A stretch of DNA of 64,000 nt from Eledone cirrhosa (Eukaryota): the NCBI GenBank assembly GCA_964016885.1, contig OZ024743.1, positions 377,208,001 to 377,272,000 of the forward strand, written 5' to 3'. The notes under the pieces are model-generated. The model saw only the letters and a list, made by a program, of their open reading frames with translations. It was not told the origin of the DNA and ran no database searches. Below, piece by piece: positions 1 to 10,159 of this stretch; position 1 is the stretch's first letter, and the number at the start of each line of letters is the position of its first letter. Made by a program: the position numbers and the translations under genes.

Positions 1-2185
1 CCGAGTTGCAGACCGATCGACTTGTCCCGGTTCAGCTTAGCCCCTGTAAACCTTTCGTACTCCTCCAGTAAGGTGCCGATCGCCCCGATTTCCGAGGCTG
101 TCGACACCATTACTGTTACGTCATCGGCGTAGGCTGACACTGCTTTCCGCAATCCCGGTTCCAACGGGATGCCCTGCAACAACTCCAACTTCCGCAGCAG
201 TGACTCTAGAGTCATTACATACAGAAGGGAGGAGAGAGGGCACCCCTGTCGGATGGACCGCGCGATTTCGAACGGCTCCGAGAGGTAGCCGTTCACCTTG
301 ACCCTAGAGCAGATGTGGCTGCTGTGCATGGCATTGATCCAGCCCCTGAAAACGGGTCCGAAGCCTGCCGCCGCTAGCACCGCATCCAGGTAACCATGGT
401 CGACCCTATCGAATGCCTTAGATTGATCCAAGTTGATCAGGGCCCCACCAAAGCCGGGTTCGTTCCCAACCCTCTCTATGATGTATCGCATGCGGTGGAG
501 GTTATCGTGGATGGACCTGCACGGGATAGCACATGTCTGCGCATCTCCCACCAGGTTGCCCACGACAAGCGCCAATCTCTTTGCTAGCACCTTGGCCAAA
601 ATCTGTAACTCTGTATTTAGCAGAGTTATGAGCCTGAAATTATTTATATCGTCCACCTTGTTCTCGTCCTTCCTCACTAGCATGACTACGCCCTTGGTCA
701 CAGCACAGGGAATTCTCCCGTTCTGTTGCCAGTTGCAGTAGACCGCCTCGAGGAGTTCGGGGAACAAGTCCGGCATAGCTAGATATAGTTCGTATGGAAG
801 ACCATCGAGACCCGGGGATTTGCGTTTGCCGCATTGGCTCAGCACGTCCTCTATCTCAGCGGCTGAAATCGGCTCCTCGCAGGACTTCGCCTCCCTGTCC
901 GAGAGACGCGGCAGGCCTTCGAGGTATGGACCGAAGTCCACGTCCCCAACAGGCCCCTCGCTCCTTCCGAACAATCCGGCAAAGTGCTTTTGAAAAGCCT
1001 CGCACATCTGCTTAGGTTCAAGGATCACCCGTCCATCCTGGTCTCGCAAAGACCGGATAGTGGATCTGCTCCCTCTTTTGGCTTCTGTCACGCGGGCCCA
1101 GCTAACAGCTTTGGTCCCTCGTTTCCCAGAGCACGTATTTTGCTTCGGACGATGCAGCCTTCGTGTTTCGCGTCGAAGAACTGGCCCAGGGCCGTTCTCG
1201 ACGCTAGCACTCTGGCCACGTCGCCGCTTCTAATTGCCTCTTCTACACTATCTACCAACTCCCTTTCCTTCCTATTTCTATTGGAGGCTAACTCCTTACT
1301 AAATTCTATAGAGACTACTCTAATCTCTCTTTTGAGAGATCCCCACCACCTGCTGTTGACGATGGCGCCCGTCAACCGCTCCTTAACTAAAGTGCTAATC
1401 CGGTCCCTGTAAGCCTTACTTGCCGGTAAGGACAAGTTGAGCTTCCAGTAACCGGGTCCCTGTCTATGAGTTCTGTCAAGGTTGATCATGCAGGTCACTA
1501 ACTTGTGGTCTGAATAGCCAACCATGCGCATTTTTGGACAACTTAAAAAGTCCTTATCCTTAATTCTAACTAAGAACCTATCTAGGTACGACCTAGATGA
1601 TCCGCTACGATTTGCCCAAGTCCAGGTTGGCGCAGTCGAAAAATCTAGTCGATATCTATCGGCCAGGTCAAATCGACCGATTAACCCTTTGAGGCTATTA
1701 CACCCCTCTCTATCGGGACAGGCCCCTACGTAGTCCCAGCGTGCATCTAGGATACCATTCCAGTCCCCCACTAATAGCAAGGAGCGGGACGTCCCTAGAA
1801 AAGTCTCCAGACGATGGAAGAAGTCCGGCCGCATTGACCCGAAAGGGCCGTAGGCGGCTACCAACCTAAACGCTCCGCCTTTACCACTGCCAAGGTCCAG
1901 AACCACTAGTCGACCCTCCGGGTCCAAATGTACCATCTGTGTTGCGAGACCCAGATGTTTTTGCAGCAGAACGACAACTCCACCCCCACCTCCGGGCTGA
2001 CAGAGAGATGCGTGCATCTCAAAGTCATCAAAGGTGGGGGCCAGCTGTCGCACGTTGCTGATCCGGGCCTCGCAAATAACCATCACATCTATACGTTGTG
2101 ACCTGAGGTCATTTAGAAGCATTGCTTGCTTCCAAGTTGAGCCCAGGCCACGCGCATTTAAACAGCCTACTCTTAGCATAGCCAT
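1..2185 (-). pseudogene. ORF2 (APE endonuclease-reverse transcriptase) of copy 1, frameshifted, partial
   Basis: Starts MAMLRVGCLNARGL and contains LVGDWN, SYLDRF, SDH and GPGYWKLN. A 1-nt deletion at ~1115-1117 (ggtccctcg vs ggtcccctcg in copy 2) shifts the frame. The new frame carries RT motifs including YADD at 131-120. Confidence 0.9.
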
Positions 2186-2209
2186 GTTGGTGGTGAAGAG
2201 AAAAGGCAC

Positions 2210-4006
2210 TTACCTCTCTGCGTCCCGGGTATCGGGCTGCACAATTTCCATTAGGGTGGGGGATGGGTTGTTGGGTGGGGTGGTGGTTTGTGGAAGTGTA
2301 GGGGCATCAGTGTGTTGTGTGGTTGGGGAGCTTGGAGTTGTGTGGGTGTTTGGGGAGGGGGTGGGATAGTTTTTTAGGAGGACGCGGTTAATGGGCCCGA
2401 CACAGGGGGGACCCACGTCCTCTTTAAAATTGTTTTTTAAAGTTTTATAGGTGTCCTGTGGGGCCTTAATCATTTTGAGGTGGGGGAAATCCCCTGCCTG
2501 GGTGAAGTTAGGCCCTTGTGTTTTTATTAGATTGTTGTTGTACACAATGTTTAACAGTTTTTTGTTTCTTGTGTTTATGTATGTGTATGCATGTTTTTGT
2601 TTTTGTGTGGTGTTTTTTGTTTGCTGTTGTTGTGAGCTCTTTTGTGTTGGTGTCAGTGTTATGTTTTAGGGAGGGGTTGTTTTCATTTGTGTGTCTGAGG
2701 TGTGTTTTCTTTTTTTTCTTTTGATTGTGTGGAAGTGCTCCTCCTCGTCTGACGACGAACTAGGGTCATCTTCCGCGTTGGAGGGGAGGGGTATATTTTC
2801 GGGTTGTGTTTGCGGTGCGGGTGTTTTGGAAATTGTTTTTGTTTTTTGAGTGGAGGGGATGGGTTGGACATTGTTTTGTTTTGGTTTGAGCTGTGGTGGT
2901 TGTTTTTGTAGTGGTAGTTGTGGTGATTGTGTTGGTTGTGCAGTTGTTGGTGGTGTAGGCAGGATTGGGGTTTTCTTATTAAGTTGGGGAGACAGCCCTC
3001 AGGTGACCTCTGGTTCCGCAGAGGTAACATGAGGGCCGTCTACCCTCAACGGTAATGTTGATGAAGGTTAGATCATCCAGTATGACGCGTTCAGGGATCT
3101 GGGCGATCCTTTCGGGCCTCATTTGAACTACAAGTTCGAGGCTCGTTCCACTGAACGCGTCACCCGATGCCTTTCCCATGGACACCAGCATGTCATCCTC
3201 CAGGTCCAGGAAACCTGTCAAAACCCACCATATGTCCATAATCGGCAGGATGGTGTGGATTTTTATTTTTTGTGTTCTTCTACCCATGTACGTAGGGTAG
3301 AAGGTGTATGCGGTGGATGTGATTGGTTTGATGGACAGTTTCACTGCTGTGTCCCTGTCCTTCATGAGAATGGATAGACTCCCGTAGAGTCTATCCTTCT
3401 GAATGAAGGTGATGTCCTTCATGACGTCTTTTAAAACCAGCTCTATCTCGCTCTGTGATGGTTGAGCTGGTTTTTTACTTTTGTTCGAGATTGTCCTAAA
3501 CATGACCGTGTTTAGGAGTCTCTGACTTTTTAGTTCCGGGGGGGAATGGATTGTGAATGAACCATTTTCTCCGTACACTATATATTTTTTCGCATCTGCC
3601 AGTAGCTCCTTCGCTTTGGTTATATCTACTGGCAGATAGTCGAGGGTTTTCCTTGTCGTCTCGGCGAAGGAGAAATTTTGTTTGTTTGTGTTGTTGTTGT
3701 CGTTGGTGGTGTTGTTGTTATCATTGTTGTTGTTGTCACCGTTATTGGTCTTGTTGTTGTTGGTGTTGTTTTGTTATTGGTGTTGTTTTCGTCCGTCGCA
3801 TTGTTGTTGTTGTTGCTGTTGCTGGTGCCGCTGGTTCTTTGGGTTGTTGCCATGGCAACGTCAAGTTGTCGGTTAACAGGTGGAGAGAATTCTTCCTCTG
3901 GCTGACCTTTCTTCTTGACCTCTGCTACTGTGACAGTGGCAGGGGGAAGCTGTAAGTTTATCTTCCCCTTTCCTCCTTCGAATTTTGGTGAAGAAGCTTC
4001 GGCCAT
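2210..4006 (-). pseudogene. ORF1 (gag-like nucleic-acid-binding protein) of copy 1, broken by several frameshifts
   Basis: Track fragments 4006-3626, 3578-2979 and 2545-2210 are homologous to copy 2 ORF1 (KDRLYGS, YMGRRTQ, QMRPERIAQIP, EGRRPSCYLCGTRGH, HLKMIK). The last Cys of the CCHC knuckle is lost. Confidence 0.85.
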
Positions 4007-4227
4007 TTAAAAAAATATTGACTTTTCAACAAGAAAAAACTTTTTTTTTTTGTTTAACTATTTCGCCTAAAGGCGTAGACTATTTTGAGAGACTGACCAG
4101 ATTAAAGTTTGACCTGGCAGTCCCTCTACAAAATGGTACAAAAATGAAAGTTCACAGTTTACAATTTCCGGATGAATTTAAACAAAACTTACCGAGCGAG
4201 CTCAGCACATATGTCCATCGTAAAGAG

Positions 4228-4228
<1 letters not shown>

Positions 4229-4312
<84 letters not shown>
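4229..4312. repeat. (GATA)21 microsatellite between the two Tx1 copies
   Basis: Perfect GATA tandem read directly. Confidence 0.98.
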
Positions 4313-4313
<1 letters not shown>

Positions 4314-4320
4314 ATTTCTA

Positions 4321-4326
4321 TTTATT
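4321..4326 (-). promoter_or_regulatory. Polyadenylation signal AATAAA of copy 2
   Basis: AATAAA on the minus strand 8 nt before the element/microsatellite junction. Confidence 0.55.
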
Positions 4327-4456
4327 TGCCACGAGGGCACAACAGAAGGGGACATTTACACAGTGGGGGAGTTTACATAAATCGAGTAAAGAAAAAGGAA
4401 TAACAATAATAATATAACAATAAAAAGTCCTCAAAAGGGAGGGGGCGTGTTGGGGA

Positions 4457-4492
4457 TTGCACATACCCCCGAAAAGTGTGCAACTCTTTTCG
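4457..4492 (-). other. Predicted H-type RNA pseudoknot in the 3'UTR of copy 2
   Basis: Sense RNA CGAAAAG-AG-UUGCACA-CUUUUCG-GGGGUA-UGUGCAA forms two interleaved perfect 7-bp helices. Confidence 0.6.
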
Positions 4493-4543
4493 CAGGGGAA
4501 GCCCAGAGAGGAGGCGCTCCCCCTTTCGTCTTCACTTCTTCAC

Positions 4544-7500
4544 CTACAGAACAATGTAGAGAGAAGGCCCATTTACACGGACCATTCTCGCTTCTTTCAC
4601 CCACCTTTCATAAAACTGTCTGGGGCCAAGCACTTCTCTCTCCATCCTGATTCTTCTTCCGAAGTGGTATCGGAAGAAGTAAACCAGGTGATGGCCGGAG
4701 AGAAAGTCACCCGACCTCAGACCTTTCAGGCGCGTCCACCACACAACCTCTTTCATCATGGCTATTACGCACAGAAAGACCGCCTCTGCTTCATTTCTGA
4801 AGGGAGGAGGCGGCTTGATGTTCACCACAGACTCGGCGGTTAATCGAATCGGCGCCACACGCGACAGCAGTCGTTCGACGTAGCCCCACAGATCGGCAAC
4901 GCCCGGGCAGTGTACCAGTGCATGCGCAACGGTTTCCTCGTCGCGCACGCATCTGGGACAGATCTTTTTCGCGGGATCCCTGCCCGGGCGCCCGTGTCTG
5001 TAGAGCTTTTCTCGAACGGGCAGAGCCCCCCGGTAACACTGCCAGGCTAGGGACCTCTGGAAGTTGTCCATGGGTCCCGGGCCGAAAGTTCTACCGAACA
5101 GGCTGGCCAGTTCGTCCTCCTCCATGCCTAGCGACTCTCCAAGGGTGTCGTCGCCCCTGCTAGCCACCAACCCTCTATAGAATGTCGAGGTGGATTCTCC
5201 ACTGACAGTCGGGTCCGTTTGCCAGATAGCCGTGAGCGCCTGGGCACACTCGGTGTGCCAGTTGCCCAGTTTTCTCGGTCTTTGCTTCACCCAGGATTGC
5301 AGTTCGGTGAGCGAGACGAGCTGTGGGAAGGCTCGCCTCACAAACGGGGCCCACACCGGCTGACCGTTGAGGAATACCTGTAGATGCCGTAGCCTCAATG
5401 CGTGCCTACGCATCAACAGCCACGGCATACCCAGCCCTCCTTTCGAAGGGTGCTGGCAGCAGATGGATCTCCTCACCATGGGAGGCCGCTTCTTCCAGAG
5501 GAACTGGAAGAGCATGCGTTCCATGATGGTGAACTTTTCCTTGGGGCAAGGCACGACGGTCAGGCGGTAGTAGATGACGGACGCTATGTAAGCGTTCGTC
5601 ACCTCCGCCCGACCTTTCAGTGATAGTTTGCACTTGGCCCACTTCTGGGTCAGCGCAAACACCCTGCTCGTCACCTCGCCCCAATTCTTCTCCACCTGGA
5701 GGTCCGGTCCGAACCAGACCCCGAGCAGCTTCACCGGGCCCTCCGTCCACCGCCTGACGACACCGTCTAACGGCATCGGTTTGCCCCTCCACGTTCCGAG
5801 TTGCAAACCGACTGACTTGTCCTGGTTCAGCCTAGCCCCCGTCAGCCTTTCGTATTCCTCCAGTAGGGTGGCGATCGCCCCGATTTCCGAGGCGTCCGCC
5901 ACCATTACTGTTACGTCGTCGGCATAGGCCGAGACCGCTTTGTGCAATCCCGGTTCCAGGGGTATGCCCCACAGCAACTCCAACTTCCGCAGCAGTGGCT
6001 CGAGAGTCAATACGTACAGAAGGGAGGAGAGGGGGCACCCCTGTCTGATGGATCGGGTGATTTGAAACGGCTCCGAGAGGTAGCCGTTTACTTTAATCCT
6101 AGAGTAGATGTTGCCACTGTGCATGGCAGAAATCCAACCCCTGAAAACGGGTCCGAAGCCCGCCGCCGCTAGCACCGCATCCAGGTAACCATGGTCGACC
6201 CTATCGAACGCCTTAGATTGATCCAAGTTGATCAGGGCCCCACCAAAGCCGGGTTCGTTGCCAACCCTCTCTATGATGTATCGCATGAGGTGGAGGTTGT
6301 GAATGGACCTGGACGGGATAGCGCATGTCTGCGCGTCTCCCACCAAACCACCCACCACAAGCGCCAACCTCTTCGCCAACACCTTGGCCAAAATCTGTAA
6401 CTCTGCATTCAGCAGAGTTATGGGCCTAAAGTTACTTAAGTCGTCCCCCTTGCTCTCGTCCTTCCTCACTAGCGTGACCACGCCCTTGGTCACAGAACAG
6501 GGAATTCTCCCGTTCTGTTGCCAGTTGCAATAGACAGCCTCGAGGAGTTCGGAGAACAAGACCGGCATAGCTAAATAAAATTCGTATGGTAGACCATCGA
6601 GACCCGGGGATTTGCGTCTGCTGCATTGGCTGAGCGCTTCCCCGATTTCAGTGGCTGTGATTGGCCTTTCGCAGCAGTCCGCTTCGCCGCTCGAAAGACG
6701 CGGTAGACCGTCGAGGTATGGACCGAAGTCCACATCCCCGACCGGCCCCCCGCCCCCTCCGAACAGTCGAGCAAAGTGCCTTTGAAAGGCCTCGCACATC
6801 CGCTCAGGTTCAAGGATCACCCGTCCATCCTGGTCTCGCAAAGACCGAATGGTGGATTTAATCCCACTCTTGGCTTCTGTCACGCGGGCCCAGCTAACAG
6901 CTTTGGTCCCCTCGTTTCCTAAAGCACGTATTTTACTTCGGACAACGCAGCCTTCGTGCTTCGCGTCAAAGAACTGACTCAACGCCGTTCTCGCCGCTAA
7001 CACTCTGGCTACGTCTCCGCTCCTAATCGCCTCTTCTAGTTTATCTGTTAACTCCCTTTCCTTCCTATTTCTATTCGCCGCTAGTTCCTTACTGTAACCT
7101 ATCGAACTTACTCTAATCTCTCTCTTTAGAGATACCCACCACCTACTGTTGACGATCGCTCCCGTCAACCGCATCTTAACTAAGCTACTAATCCGGTTCC
7201 TGTAATCTTTCTTTGCCGGCAAGGACAAGTTCATCTTCCAGTAACCGGGACCCTGTCTATGCGTTCTATCAAGGTTGACCACGCAGGTCACTAATTTGTG
7301 ATCTGAATAGCCAACCATGATCAATACTGGACAACTAAATACGTCCCTATCCTTACTCCTAACCAAAAACCTATCTAGGTACGATCTAGATTGTCCACTG
7401 CGGTTTGCCCAGGTCCAGGTTGGTGCAGTTGGACAATCTAGTCGAAATCTATCGACCAGGTCGAATCGATCGAGTAACCCCTTGAGGCTGCTACACCCCC

Positions 7501-7975
7501 CTCTATCGGGACATGCCCCTGCATAGTCCCAACGCGCATCTAGGATTCCATTCCAGTCCCCCACTAAAAGCAGGGAACGCGACGTTCCTAGAAAAGTCTC
7601 CAGACGCTGGAAGAAGTCGGCTCTTTCCGCCCCGAAGGGGGCATAAAGACCGACCAGTCTGAAAGCCCCGCCTTCACCGCCTCCGACGTCCAGCACCAGT
7701 AATCGACCCCCCGGGTCCGAGTGAACAATCTGTACGTCGAGAGCCAGACGTTTATCCAGCAGTACGGCACCCCCCCCCCCCCCACCGCCTCCGGGTTGAC
7801 AGAGAGATGCGTGCATCTTAAAGTCATCGAAGGCGGGCGCCAGCTGTCTCACGCTGCTGATCCGACTCTCGCAAACAACCATCACATCTATACTTTGTGA
7901 CCTGAGGTCATTTAGAAGCTTTGCTTGCTTCCAAGCTGAGCCCAGGCCACGCGCGTTCAAACAGCCAACTCTCAA
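4544..7975 (-). CDS. ORF2: APE endonuclease, reverse transcriptase and C-terminal cysteine knuckle (1143 aa; no AUG at the homologous start)
   Basis: APE motifs LNARGL, GDWN, SYLDRF, SDH. RT motifs SPGLDG, NFRPITLLN, DQSKAFD, QGCPLS, YADD, LLGV. C-terminal CPRC...HALVHC. Frame is uninterrupted. Confidence 0.95.
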   Translation of the reverse strand: MRVGCLNARGLGSAWKQAKLLNDLRSQSIDVMVVCESRISSVRQLAPAFDDFKMHASLCQPGGGGGGGGAVLLDKRLALDVQIVHSDPGGRLLVLDVGGGEGGAFRLVGLYAPFGAERADFFQRLETFLGTSRSLLLVGDWNGILDARWDYAGACPDRGGCSSLKGLLDRFDLVDRFRLDCPTAPTWTWANRSGQSRSYLDRFLVRSKDRDVFSCPVLIMVGYSDHKLVTCVVNLDRTHRQGPGYWKMNLSLPAKKDYRNRISSLVKMRLTGAIVNSRWWVSLKREIRVSSIGYSKELAANRNRKERELTDKLEEAIRSGDVARVLAARTALSQFFDAKHEGCVVRSKIRALGNEGTKAVSWARVTEAKSGIKSTIRSLRDQDGRVILEPERMCEAFQRHFARLFGGGGGPVGDVDFGPYLDGLPRLSSGEADCCERPITATEIGEALSQCSRRKSPGLDGLPYEFYLAMPVLFSELLEAVYCNWQQNGRIPCSVTKGVVTLVRKDESKGDDLSNFRPITLLNAELQILAKVLAKRLALVVGGLVGDAQTCAIPSRSIHNLHLMRYIIERVGNEPGFGGALINLDQSKAFDRVDHGYLDAVLAAAGFGPVFRGWISAMHSGNIYSRIKVNGYLSEPFQITRSIRQGCPLSSLLYVLTLEPLLRKLELLWGIPLEPGLHKAVSAYADDVTVMVADASEIGAIATLLEEYERLTGARLNQDKSVGLQLGTWRGKPMPLDGVVRRWTEGPVKLLGVWFGPDLQVEKNWGEVTSRVFALTQKWAKCKLSLKGRAEVTNAYIASVIYYRLTVVPCPKEKFTIMERMLFQFLWKKRPPMVRRSICCQHPSKGGLGMPWLLMRRHALRLRHLQVFLNGQPVWAPFVRRAFPQLVSLTELQSWVKQRPRKLGNWHTECAQALTAIWQTDPTVSGESTSTFYRGLVASRGDDTLGESLGMEEDELASLFGRTFGPGPMDNFQRSLAWQCYRGALPVREKLYRHGRPGRDPAKKICPRCVRDEETVAHALVHCPGVADLWGYVERLLSRVAPIRLTAESVVNIKPPPPFRNEAEAVFLCVIAMMKEVVWWTRLKGLRSGDFLSGHHLVYFFRYHFGRRIRMEREVLGPRQFYERWVKEARMVRVNGPSLYIVL

Positions 7976-7980
7976 TTGAT

Positions 7981-9813
7981 CTATTTTGGTGTTGAAAGTG
8001 AAGAAAGAAAAGCACCTACCTCTCCGGGTTGTGTAATTTCCATGGCATCAGGTGTGTTGGGTGGAGGGATGTTTTGTGGTGGTGTGGGGGTATCCGTGTG
8101 TGGTGGGGTTGGGGTATTTGGAGTTGTGTCAGGGAGAGGGGCGGTTATGGGGAAATCTTTCAAGAGGACGCGATTTAACGGTTTTAAACAGGGGGGGCTC
8201 ACGTCCCGTCTAAATTGTTCTTTTAAGGAACGATAAAGGTCCAGAGGGACCTTTATCATTTTTAAATGGGTGAAGTTCTCTGTTGAGATAAAGTTTGGCC
8301 CTTCGGTCTGCACCATAGGGTTATTGTTTATTAATTTAACCAGTTTTTTGTTTTCTTTATTTATATATGTGTATTGCAACGTCTTTTTTTGTGATGCTGT
8401 CAATGTTTCGGAGAGGGGAGGCGCAGATTTATTTTTGTTTGTTGAGGGTGGGGTGTTTTTGATTGGAGTTGGTGTTTGTGTGTGGGTTATTTGTGGTGTG
8501 CTGGGTGTGTGTTTTCTTTTTTTTCTTTTAACTTGTCTGAAGGCTTCTCCTCCTTCTTCTTCAGAAGTTGGGGGAAACTCTTCAGCGCTAGGTGGGAGGG
8601 ACGTGTTGTGTGGTTGTTTTTTTTTTGCGGGAGGGGTAGATTTGTTACTGTTTTTTTTATTATTTGTTTGGAATGGGTTTTGTGGTGGTGGTGGTGGTGG
8701 TAATGTTTGTGTCGTGCTTGTGGTTGGTGATGGTGATGTTTGTGTTGTGGTTGGTGGTGGTGATTTTTGTGTCGTGCTTGTGTTTGGTGCTGGTGGTGGT
8801 GATGTTTGTGTTGTGTTTGTGGTTGGTGGTGTCTGTATTTTGTTTGCTGTGTGTGGTATTAGTGTATTTTTGGAGGTGGGTGGTGTTGGTGTACTGTTTG
8901 TGGTGGGTGTGGGCAATAGTCCTTTTTGGGGGATACGTTTCGGGCAGTTAGCCTTAACGTGTCCCCTTCCCATGCATAAATAGCATGCTGGTCTTCTCCC
9001 CTCTACAATTATGTCTATTGGGGTAAGGTCATCCAGCCAGATGCGATCCGGGATTTGTGCTATTCTTTCGGGCCTCATTTGGACTAGTATGTCGAGGCCC
9101 ATTCCCAGGAACGCATCTCCAGTTGCCTTCCCCATTGACAGCATTGTGTCTTCGCCCATGTCTATGAAGCCAGCAATAGCCCACCAGAAGTCCATTGTGG
9201 GCAGCATTGTTTTTACTTTTACTCTCTGTGTTCTTCTACCCATGTAGGAGGGATAGAAGCTGTATGTTGTCGATGAGAGTGGGCTTAGGGAAAGCTTCTC
9301 CACCGTTTCCTTGTCTTTTGTTAAGACCGAAATGCTGCCATAGAGTCGGTCCTTTCGTATGAAGAGAATATTCTTCATATAGTCTTTTAGGACCAACTCT
9401 ATTTCCATTTGGCTGGGCTGTGCTGGCTTTCTTGTCTGGTTCAGTATAGTTCTGAAGAGAACTGTGTTCTCTGTTCTTTCTTTCTTGAATTCTGGGGGGG
9501 AGTTAATGGAAAACATTCCGTTCTCCCCCAAAACAATGTGTTTCTTTGCTTCGGCCAGTTTTTCTCTGGCGGAAGTTAGGTCAATTGGTGTGTATGTAAT
9601 GGATTGTTTTGTTTTCTGGGCGAAAGTTGCCCTGTTGTTATTTGTATTATTTTCTGTTTGTTTGTTTTCCGTTTGCTCATTTTCCTTAACATTTGTTTTT
9701 TCATTTTCTTTGTTTGTTTCATTGTCTAATTTTGTTGTAATTATTTTTTGTTCTTCAGACTTGGGGGGCGTGGCAGAGCTAATGGCAGACATGTCTGCCA
9801 TCTTTTCCGCCAT
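7981..9813 (-). CDS. ORF1: gag-like protein with CCHC zinc knuckle and Pro/Thr-rich linker
   Basis: Open frame with first ATG at 9813 (the track starts at TTG 9840). Contains CYLCMGRGHVKANC knuckle and basic KRKKRK patch; homologous to copy 1 ORF1 fragments. Confidence 0.88.
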   Translation of the reverse strand: MAEKMADMSAISSATPPKSEEQKIITTKLDNETNKENEKTNVKENEQTENKQTENNTNNNRATFAQKTKQSITYTPIDLTSAREKLAEAKKHIVLGENGMFSINSPPEFKKERTENTVLFRTILNQTRKPAQPSQMEIELVLKDYMKNILFIRKDRLYGSISVLTKDKETVEKLSLSPLSSTTYSFYPSYMGRRTQRVKVKTMLPTMDFWWAIAGFIDMGEDTMLSMGKATGDAFLGMGLDILVQMRPERIAQIPDRIWLDDLTPIDIIVEGRRPACYLCMGRGHVKANCPKRIPQKGLLPTPTTNSTPTPPTSKNTLIPHTANKIQTPPTTNTTQTSPPPAPNTSTTQKSPPPTTTQTSPSPTTSTTQTLPPPPPPQNPFQTNNKKNSNKSTPPAKKKQPHNTSLPPSAEEFPPTSEEEGGEAFRQVKRKKRKHTPSTPQITHTQTPTPIKNTPPSTNKNKSAPPLSETLTASQKKTLQYTYINKENKKLVKLINNNPMVQTEGPNFISTENFTHLKMIKVPLDLYRSLKEQFRRDVSPPCLKPLNRVLLKDFPITAPLPDTTPNTPTPPHTDTPTPPQNIPPPNTPDAMEITQPGEVGAFLSSLSTPK

Positions 9814-10014
9814 GCTGCCAAGAAAGAAATTTTTCGGCAAAAATAGATATTTATTTTACCCCCTAAAAAGGGGGTAAATGCAAAAATGTTTCCCTAAATA
9901 ACAGGGGTTAGTGTTCCAAATGTGTTGGACTGAAAAATTTATCCGGTACTTACAATAGTAAGGGTAAATCCCGATGGAATAGCGGAGCCGATGTGAAACG
10001 TGTCTTACTCTATC

Positions 10015-10016
<2 letters not shown>

Positions 10017-10095
<79 letters not shown>

Positions 10096-10096
10096 C

Positions 10097-10159
<63 letters not shown>
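10017..10159. repeat. (GATA)~35 microsatellite at the 5' end of copy 2
   Basis: GATA tandem with one GATC interruption near 10096. Confidence 0.98.

Follow-up and report, generated by a model that had tools for sequence, protein, structure and literature searches.

The genome of the octopod Eledone cirrhosa harbours a lineage of two-ORF LINEs of the L1 group, likely of Tx1 type, that insert at one phase and in one orientation of TATC repeats, and the probable reason is that the GATA strand is nicked by their APE endonuclease at the predicted position 5′-AGATA^GATAG-3′. The insertions have a fixed phase and orientation, TATCT of host origin on their 3′ side, target site duplications, 5′ truncations and head-to-tail arrays, and two targets, (TATC)n and (ATT)n, occur within the lineage. 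Two copies lie in the 64,000-nucleotide stretch of DNA analysed here (the window), from which an initial annotation had proposed a retrotransposon lineage specific for (GATA)n.

Two LINE copies and their GATA tracts in the window

Copy 2 is a full-length LINE of 5704 bp on the minus strand (4313..10016) that belongs to family A and has both ORFs open. It starts TATC|TTGATAG, the fixed 5′ end of the family, and ends AATAAATAGAAATT|TATC. Its 5′ UTR (9814..10016, minus strand) is followed on the same strand by ORF1 of 610 aa (7981..9813), by ORF2 of 1142 aa, numbered from the first endonuclease residue (4544..7972), and by a 3′ UTR (4313..4543) that ends AATAAA-TAGAAATT and joins TATC directly. 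The middle tract, a (GATA)21 spacer on the plus strand (4229..4312), is the target tract that separates the 3′ end of this copy from the 5′ end of copy 1, a family B copy that begins directly after it on the minus strand. Copy 1 measures 5617 bp overall and has broken frames; its 5′ part fills positions 1..4228 and the rest extends to the left beyond the window. The two copies are 81% identical over most of ORF2 and differ in their 5′ UTRs. At the 5′ end of copy 2 lies a (GATA)19-GATC-(GATA)15 tract (10017..10159, plus strand), so that the perfect GATA runs are 4229-4312 (21 units), 10017-10092 (19 units) and 10097-10156 (15 units). As had been noted initially, all three visible ends (copy 1 5′, copy 2 3′ and copy 2 5′) meet (TATC)n in one orientation and lack poly(A). 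The reading of the 10017-10159 tract as a host microsatellite holds as well: non-LINE sequence follows past 10159, and the tract is mostly host-derived, a typical family A 5′ TATC run being about 5 units long.

Copies 2 and 1 open a head-to-tail array of about 20 kb with seven related pieces. Beyond the left edge of the window, the array continues for about 9.5 kb through the remainder of copy 1, a pair of truncated copies, two short fragments and one full-length copy of family C, all linked by (TATC)n and followed by unrelated flank. A different kind of repeat occupies positions 18891-64000 of the window, namely a 45-kb satellite with a CA-rich 27-bp unit in about 1670 copies (88% matches); the long open frames inside it most likely just result from the repeat structure.

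ORF2 of copy 2 combines an APE-type endonuclease domain (7265..7972, minus strand), with intact GDWN, YLDR and SDH motifs and the hairpin loop WANRSGQSR, a reverse transcriptase (RT; residues 510-753, YADD at 683) and a C-terminal zinc finger (residues 1005-1022). Together with the two-ORF layout, this is the architecture of an APE-type non-LTR retrotransposon. In a comparison with solved retroelement proteins, ORF2 matched human L1 ORF2p with 168 bits (residues 4-852) and R2 proteins with at most 79 bits, and the endonuclease domain by itself matched L1-scaffold endonucleases only, albeit weakly. Judged by these matches, the element is an L1-group LINE. The Atlas search with ORF2 returned only unnamed RT/endonuclease clusters, and a single-sequence fold of the endonuclease was uninformative (pLDDT 39). 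ORF1 contains a CX2CX4HX4C knuckle, CYLCMGRGHVKANC, at residues 277-290 (about 8944-8985, minus strand), for which the Pfam zf-CCHC model gave an E-value of 0.096, under the cut-off. Its N-terminal part resembles CCHC/ZCCHC3-type RNA-binding proteins, a lead that comes from Atlas look-alikes with zf-CCHC or ZCCHC3 domains. ORF1 proteins of the Tx1 clade carry a zinc knuckle of the CCHC type, which distinguishes them from ORF1 of vertebrate L1.

Insertion flanks and the origin of the repeat

We searched the 3.0-Gb genome for the termini of family A. The exact 3′ terminus matched 618 times and was followed by N and TATCT in 599 cases (97%); the head pattern matched 562 times and was preceded by TATC in one phase in 100/100 of the matches listed. 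Both values exceed a published threshold for target preference, one sequence type in >20% of flanks (PMC4494074), and the tabulated copies thus bear out the GATA targeting proposed from the window. Targeting is not absolute, as the other 19/618 3′ ends lack TATCT. Across the TATC-class subfamilies in the fetched loci, 239/257 distinct ends begin with TATCT, 192 of them with TATCTATC. The association is far above chance: a background sample of 200 kb, taken arbitrarily from the genome, has TATCT next at 0.27% of positions and TATCTATC within 30 nt upstream at 0.23%. By-eye counting showed that, of the 40 TATC-class ends among the first 100 matches listed for a shared terminal motif, 10 run into TA-, TC- or degenerate repeats. 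TATC-class ends that continue as (TA)n or (TC)n were also seen at L438, L439, L440 and L441; we take them for probable off-target insertions or decayed tracts rather than distinct families, as L440 falls with family G in the RT tree.

Tandem duplication, recombination, growth of the repeat after insertion or assembly errors might imitate such a pattern, and rearrangement does occur in these loci. The two flanks of L130 do not match each other, and family A forms head-to-tail A-A tandems (L093, L103, L116 and L127), some of which (L093, L103 and L116) have an identical interrupted spacer; shared interrupted spacers on both sides suggest later tandem duplication. We nevertheless regard a secondary effect or artefact as extremely improbable. 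The insertions are dispersed over hundreds of loci on many contigs with differing flanks, and true duplications are found at independent truncation points. An assembly artefact is moreover ruled out by raw reads from a separate study (run X16), 1017 of which cross from the end of family B into (TATC)n and so show the same junction; at this end, the Hi-C run X13 contributed just 9 reads of poor quality. The family A 5′ region is partly contained in 12 runs from 8 studies, with shares <0.2 left unused.

A (TATC)n stretch encoded at both ends of the RNA, combined with random insertion as in microsatellite-tailed LINEs, would likewise place the repeat on either side of full-length copies. Truncated copies are decisive here because they cannot carry a 5′ repeat of their own. 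We collected 15 truncated family A copies, 14 (cut within 1.5 kb) among 60 loci picked by their 3′ end and 1 among 38 loci read at both ends, and set aside 4 that adjoin further element sequence. In 10 of the 11 informative copies, TATCTATC lies no more than 30 nt upstream, in two cases behind the tail of another copy; a (TA)n 5′ flank was found at the truncated copy L092. Since TATC is also present upstream of truncated copies, the repeat is the host target. In addition, copies pile into each other's tracts, and 36/99 full-length 5′ ends lie directly behind another copy's tail.

Target site duplications that start at TATCT were found at L208 (10 bp), L209 (9 bp), L250 (12 bp), L143 (15 bp) and L131 (16 bp). 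L131, a family B copy, interrupts the endonuclease region of a different multicopy LINE, for which the empty form of the site is known. In 18/19 other copies of this host LINE, the empty site reads CTAAC TATCTGTAACACTAAC TTCAAA and contains a single TATCT; the nineteenth copy, L401, carries an independent truncated insertion of the lineage at the same base. Genome-wide, 20 ends of the lineage fall on exactly this base. Twelve loci with an insertion at the host-LINE site could be compared: 7 have a duplication, with 7 different truncation points, and in the other 5 the insertion is longer than the locus. Together with L401 this gives 8 independent events, all with duplications of 13-17 bp and no TATC added at either end. 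When the longer insertions were probed for their 5′ ends with 11 probes of 900 bp, one junction was caught (L460). Eight truncation points, one nick and no tail mean that the 3′ TATCT is host DNA, that the nick position is fixed and that a near match (CTAAC|TATCT compared with CTATC|TATCT) suffices. Variable 5′ truncation, a fixed 3′ end and target site duplications of 9-17 bp are the marks of target-primed reverse transcription (TPRT). The initial proposal would have fallen if most copies had unique 5′ flanks and TATC just as a self-made 3′ tail. We found the opposite in 10/11 truncated copies, and no 3′ unit was added at the site with the known empty form. GATA-specific insertion therefore stands, but the need for a long tract does not, since a single TATCT in a look-alike context is enough.

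Duplications are visible in 0/14 informative full-length family A copies and credible in only 4/10 family B copies. A strict search of the fetched loci recovered no empty site for family A; it gave a clean one for L131 and less exact ones for L130, L151 and L159. When the L119 insertion was compared with four contig sets, no joint that skips the element was present among the 15 matches listed (131 more exist).

On the 5′ side, the origin of the repeat is mixed. L131 has two TATC units between the duplication and the element that are missing from the empty site, and L130 and L143, also family B copies, resemble it in having extra 5′ units beyond the duplication. In family A, 5′ runs comprise 3-7 units in 43/58 copies compared with 28/58 on the 3′ side (Levene p 0.0015), and their length is unrelated to the 3′ run. 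In full-length copies, some of the 5′ TATC can thus be element-derived. This addition is not general, because L460, a full-length family C copy at the host-LINE site, has no added TATC. The view of the tract as a host target holds for the 3′ side and needs refinement on the 5′ side. The added units in L131, L130 and L143 and the narrow run lengths of family A are what a self-encoded repeat would produce. The truncated copies, the site with the known empty form and the piling of copies into each other's tracts oppose it, and we judge random insertion with (TATC)n at both RNA ends to be very improbable; like the artefact explanation, it is nearly excluded.

Sister families on (ATT)n and the proposed mechanism

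The lineage is wider than the GATA-specific group that had been suggested: the specificity holds for the TATC families, whereas sister families sit on (ATT)n. L257, a 70%-identical relative from the control sample, ends in (ATT)n, and its closest copies have an ATT run at 30/30 3′ ends, in L297 after a short stretch starting ATT. The shared terminal motif has 19,516 matches in the genome; by-eye counting of the first 100 listed gave 58 followed by ATT, 30 by TATCT, 10 by other TATC-class TA, TC or degenerate repeats and 2 by other sequence. Full-length ATT copies whose ORF2 matched over the whole length at 66-67% are L402, L405, L406, L408, L414, L415 and L420. All 10 TATC rows of a 53-row RT tree, one TA-flanked copy included, fall into a single clade (SH-aLRT 99) that is nested among ATT rows and an Argonauta protein. 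In this tree, the lineage is placed with Argonauta hians P0264 and with proteins that are about 50% identical in the RT; its closest named homologs are Argonauta hians proteins (65-67%). L436 and P0036 were dropped from the tree as too short. The tree contains no labelled Repbase references, and its sole TX1-named row (P0032) is a long branch.

Two further observations concern these repeats. A different RT-bearing LINE (L403:560-3300), with motifs that we take to be R4/Dong-like, often adjoins the (ATT)n tracts of the sister families in the opposite orientation, and two unrelated LINEs may thus share the (ATT)n repeat. In run X6 (organism C), 35 aligned letters of one contig match L131:6696-6730; there, (TCA)n comes after a 3′ end resembling those of the lineage, which is a weak lead to a third target in a related species. 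The 80 metagenome loci retrieved as relatives from outside the genome are mostly distant (best segments 21-53%), with no telling microsatellite at their ends.

We aligned the endonuclease domains of 12 TATC and 15 ATT rows. The catalytic motifs are intact, and 15 positions show near-fixed differences between the groups. One of these, S192/I, lies in the beta-hairpin corresponding to L1 T192-S202 in the alignment, with the loop defined as in the accessible part of PMC1950540, and is the only fixed difference in the loop. This near-identity of the hairpin loop in TATC and ATT families speaks against specificity carried by the endonuclease, as does the published result that loop grafts between distant enzymes do not simply transfer specificity (PMC1950540).

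For the TATC families we propose the following course of insertion. The nick in the GATA strand would leave a free AGATA-3′ end, which would prime reverse transcription at the exact 3′ end of the element. Priming would likely be aided by a read-through UAUCU in the RNA that pairs with the target, and such pairing and priming would explain why there is no poly(A). Cleavage of the second strand 9-17 bp downstream gives rise to the duplications observed at targets other than pure repeats. In at least some families, transcription of the full-length RNA likely begins within the upstream tract, so that the RNA would include a few of its units; the cDNA, ending in (GATA)n, would anneal to the target, and additional TATC units could remain at the 5′ junction. 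If it anneals near the nick, the lack of duplications in the 14 full-length family A copies would be expected. With TATC left on both sides, later copies land beside earlier ones and build the head-to-tail arrays that we observe. The TATC families themselves likely switched target, descending from relatives that insert into (ATT)n; we propose this direction only tentatively because the tree comes from a quick, unfinished search with a midpoint root and no bootstrap.

The main rival to this reading assigns target choice to the RNA: a lax endonuclease would nick AT-rich or repeat DNA broadly, only an AGATA-3′ end would pair with the read-through (UAUC)n RNA, and the ATT and TATC families would each copy their own tract. 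The absence of poly(A), the exact 3′ junction and the sufficiency of a single TATCT at the host-LINE site are compatible with such pairing, as are the close endonucleases of the TATC and ATT groups with their nearly identical hairpin loop. However, pairing would read only the downstream side of the site, and TATCT follows 0.27% of all positions, yet 20 insertions share one site whose upstream CTAAC mimics the repeat. The 15 near-fixed endonuclease differences between the groups also argue against a lax enzyme, as do the published endonucleases of Tx1L, TRAS1 and R1Bm, which are themselves specific according to the accessible text of PMC1919474 and PMC1950540. In those texts, endonuclease swaps between TRAS1 and SART1 determined the insertion site (PMC1919474), and the Tx1L endonuclease nicks almost exclusively its own target (PMC1950540). 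We therefore consider RNA-guided selection with a lax enzyme unlikely and retain the nick by a GATA-specific APE endonuclease as the preferred explanation.

A more far-reaching scenario, which we offer as a speculation with somewhat less than even chances, would describe the lineage as a so far undescribed radiation of octopod LINEs, about 20,000 copies or more in size, whose target changed recently from (ATT)n to (TATC)n. The youngest family of the lineage would be transcribed from inside the repeat, would add about 5 fresh TATC units with each full-length insertion and would thereby seed its own landing sites, 20-kb arrays and GATA microsatellites, with intact enzymes of both specificities persisting. 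Our data suggest that part of the GATA/ATT microsatellite landscape of this 3-Gb genome is tied to retrotransposon arrays.

Known microsatellite-specific elements and coding capacity

According to the accessible parts of PMC4494074, Tx1 targets include those of Tx1L and Keno, (TC)n for Kibi, (TTC)n for Koshi and (TTCC)n/(TTTC)n in crocodilians. This agrees with the microsatellite-specific Tx1 families named in the initial annotation (Kibi at TC, Koshi at TTC). The same source, citing Kojima and Fujiwara 2004, describes Kibi and Koshi as teleost Tx1-clade elements, and reports that crocodilian Tx1-1_Crp, Tx1-5_Crp, Tx1-2_AMi and others prefer (TTCC)n/(TTTC)n at the threshold of >20% of flanks. 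In the passages available from PMC4640811, the target-specific APE clades are Tx1 and R1, and Togen inserts at (TG)n. Kibi and Koshi are likewise APE-encoding L1-group LINEs specific to a microsatellite, and the present element works like them; it has a Tx1-like ORF1 knuckle and is a candidate member of the Tx1 clade in the strict sense. Going by their published descriptions, Kibi and Koshi differ from the TATC lineage, which uses (TATC)n, has sisters on (ATT)n and resides in an octopod instead of a teleost. The preference for a tetranucleotide microsatellite is common to the crocodilian families and to family A (97% of 3′ ends, compared with the threshold of >20%), but the crocodilian targets are pure pyrimidine strands whereas TATC and ATT are mixed, and here two targets co-exist in one genome, in families with ORF2s about 67% identical. 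The target of the present families is TATC, and few ends run into (TC)n.

TRAS1 and SART1 (R1 clade, telomeric TTAGG) and Tx1L (Tx1D site) also use an APE endonuclease with a beta-hairpin on a site of about 10 bp or a short repeat, followed by TPRT, as far as the accessible portions of PMC1919474, PMC1950540 and PMC7265360 describe them. The clade and target of TRAS/SART differ from those of the TATC lineage, and in the same sources SART1 requires at least 3 repeats and a poly(A) tail, whereas the TATC lineage needs one look-alike TATCT and keeps no poly(A). In Octopus vulgaris, L1-Tx1 elements comprise 80 families, 56 Mb and 13 active families according to the passages of PMC13282606 at hand, so that recently active families are likewise found in an octopus, and the present families may be among the consensus sequences of that study. 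Those passages and the supplement name no target preference, and the supplement does not contain the terms GATA, TATC, target or microsatellite; the accessible text of PMC11203168, PMC9004415 and PMC8869645 holds nothing on a TATC target. No TATC/GATA- or ATT-specific Tx1 family was found in the accessible literature, a body that leaves most subscription journals and the Repbase/Dfam entries outside. TATC and ATT are two added targets for microsatellite-specific L1/Tx1 elements.

How LINE APE endonucleases gain or change sequence specificity is still poorly explained. The TATC and ATT families would provide a natural pair for studying such a change of target: both groups are young, have open ORF2s that are about 67% identical and reside in one genome, and since only 15 endonuclease positions separate them in the aligned copies, domain swaps and point changes are tractable. 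For tools of targeted insertion, an integrating enzyme specific for a repeat is likewise of interest.

Median identity among copies is 98.1% in family A and 96.1% in family B, and both ORFs are open in 6/58 and 1/29 copies, respectively. About nine in ten family A copies are full length (562 heads compared with 618 tails; 37/38 copies picked by their 3′ end share the 5′ end); a full-length share of about 90% is unusual for LINEs. In copy 2, ORF2 has no AUG ahead of the endonuclease domain. In the overlap of ORF1 and ORF2 (window 7972-8047), 58/58 family A copies have ATA (Ile) and 19/21 family B copies have the ORF2 ATG. Family A, the youngest family, likely makes ORF2 via a non-AUG start, re-initiation or a frameshift. 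Finally, the otherwise differing 5′ UTRs share the splice-donor-like motif GAC...TCGC...GTAAG(T) 30-50 nt from the 5′ end, seen at window 4040-4228 and in the heads of L423, L426, L427, L432 and L433, and families C and G have AGAAGT as a variant. The motif may serve as a promoter element or as a U1 site.
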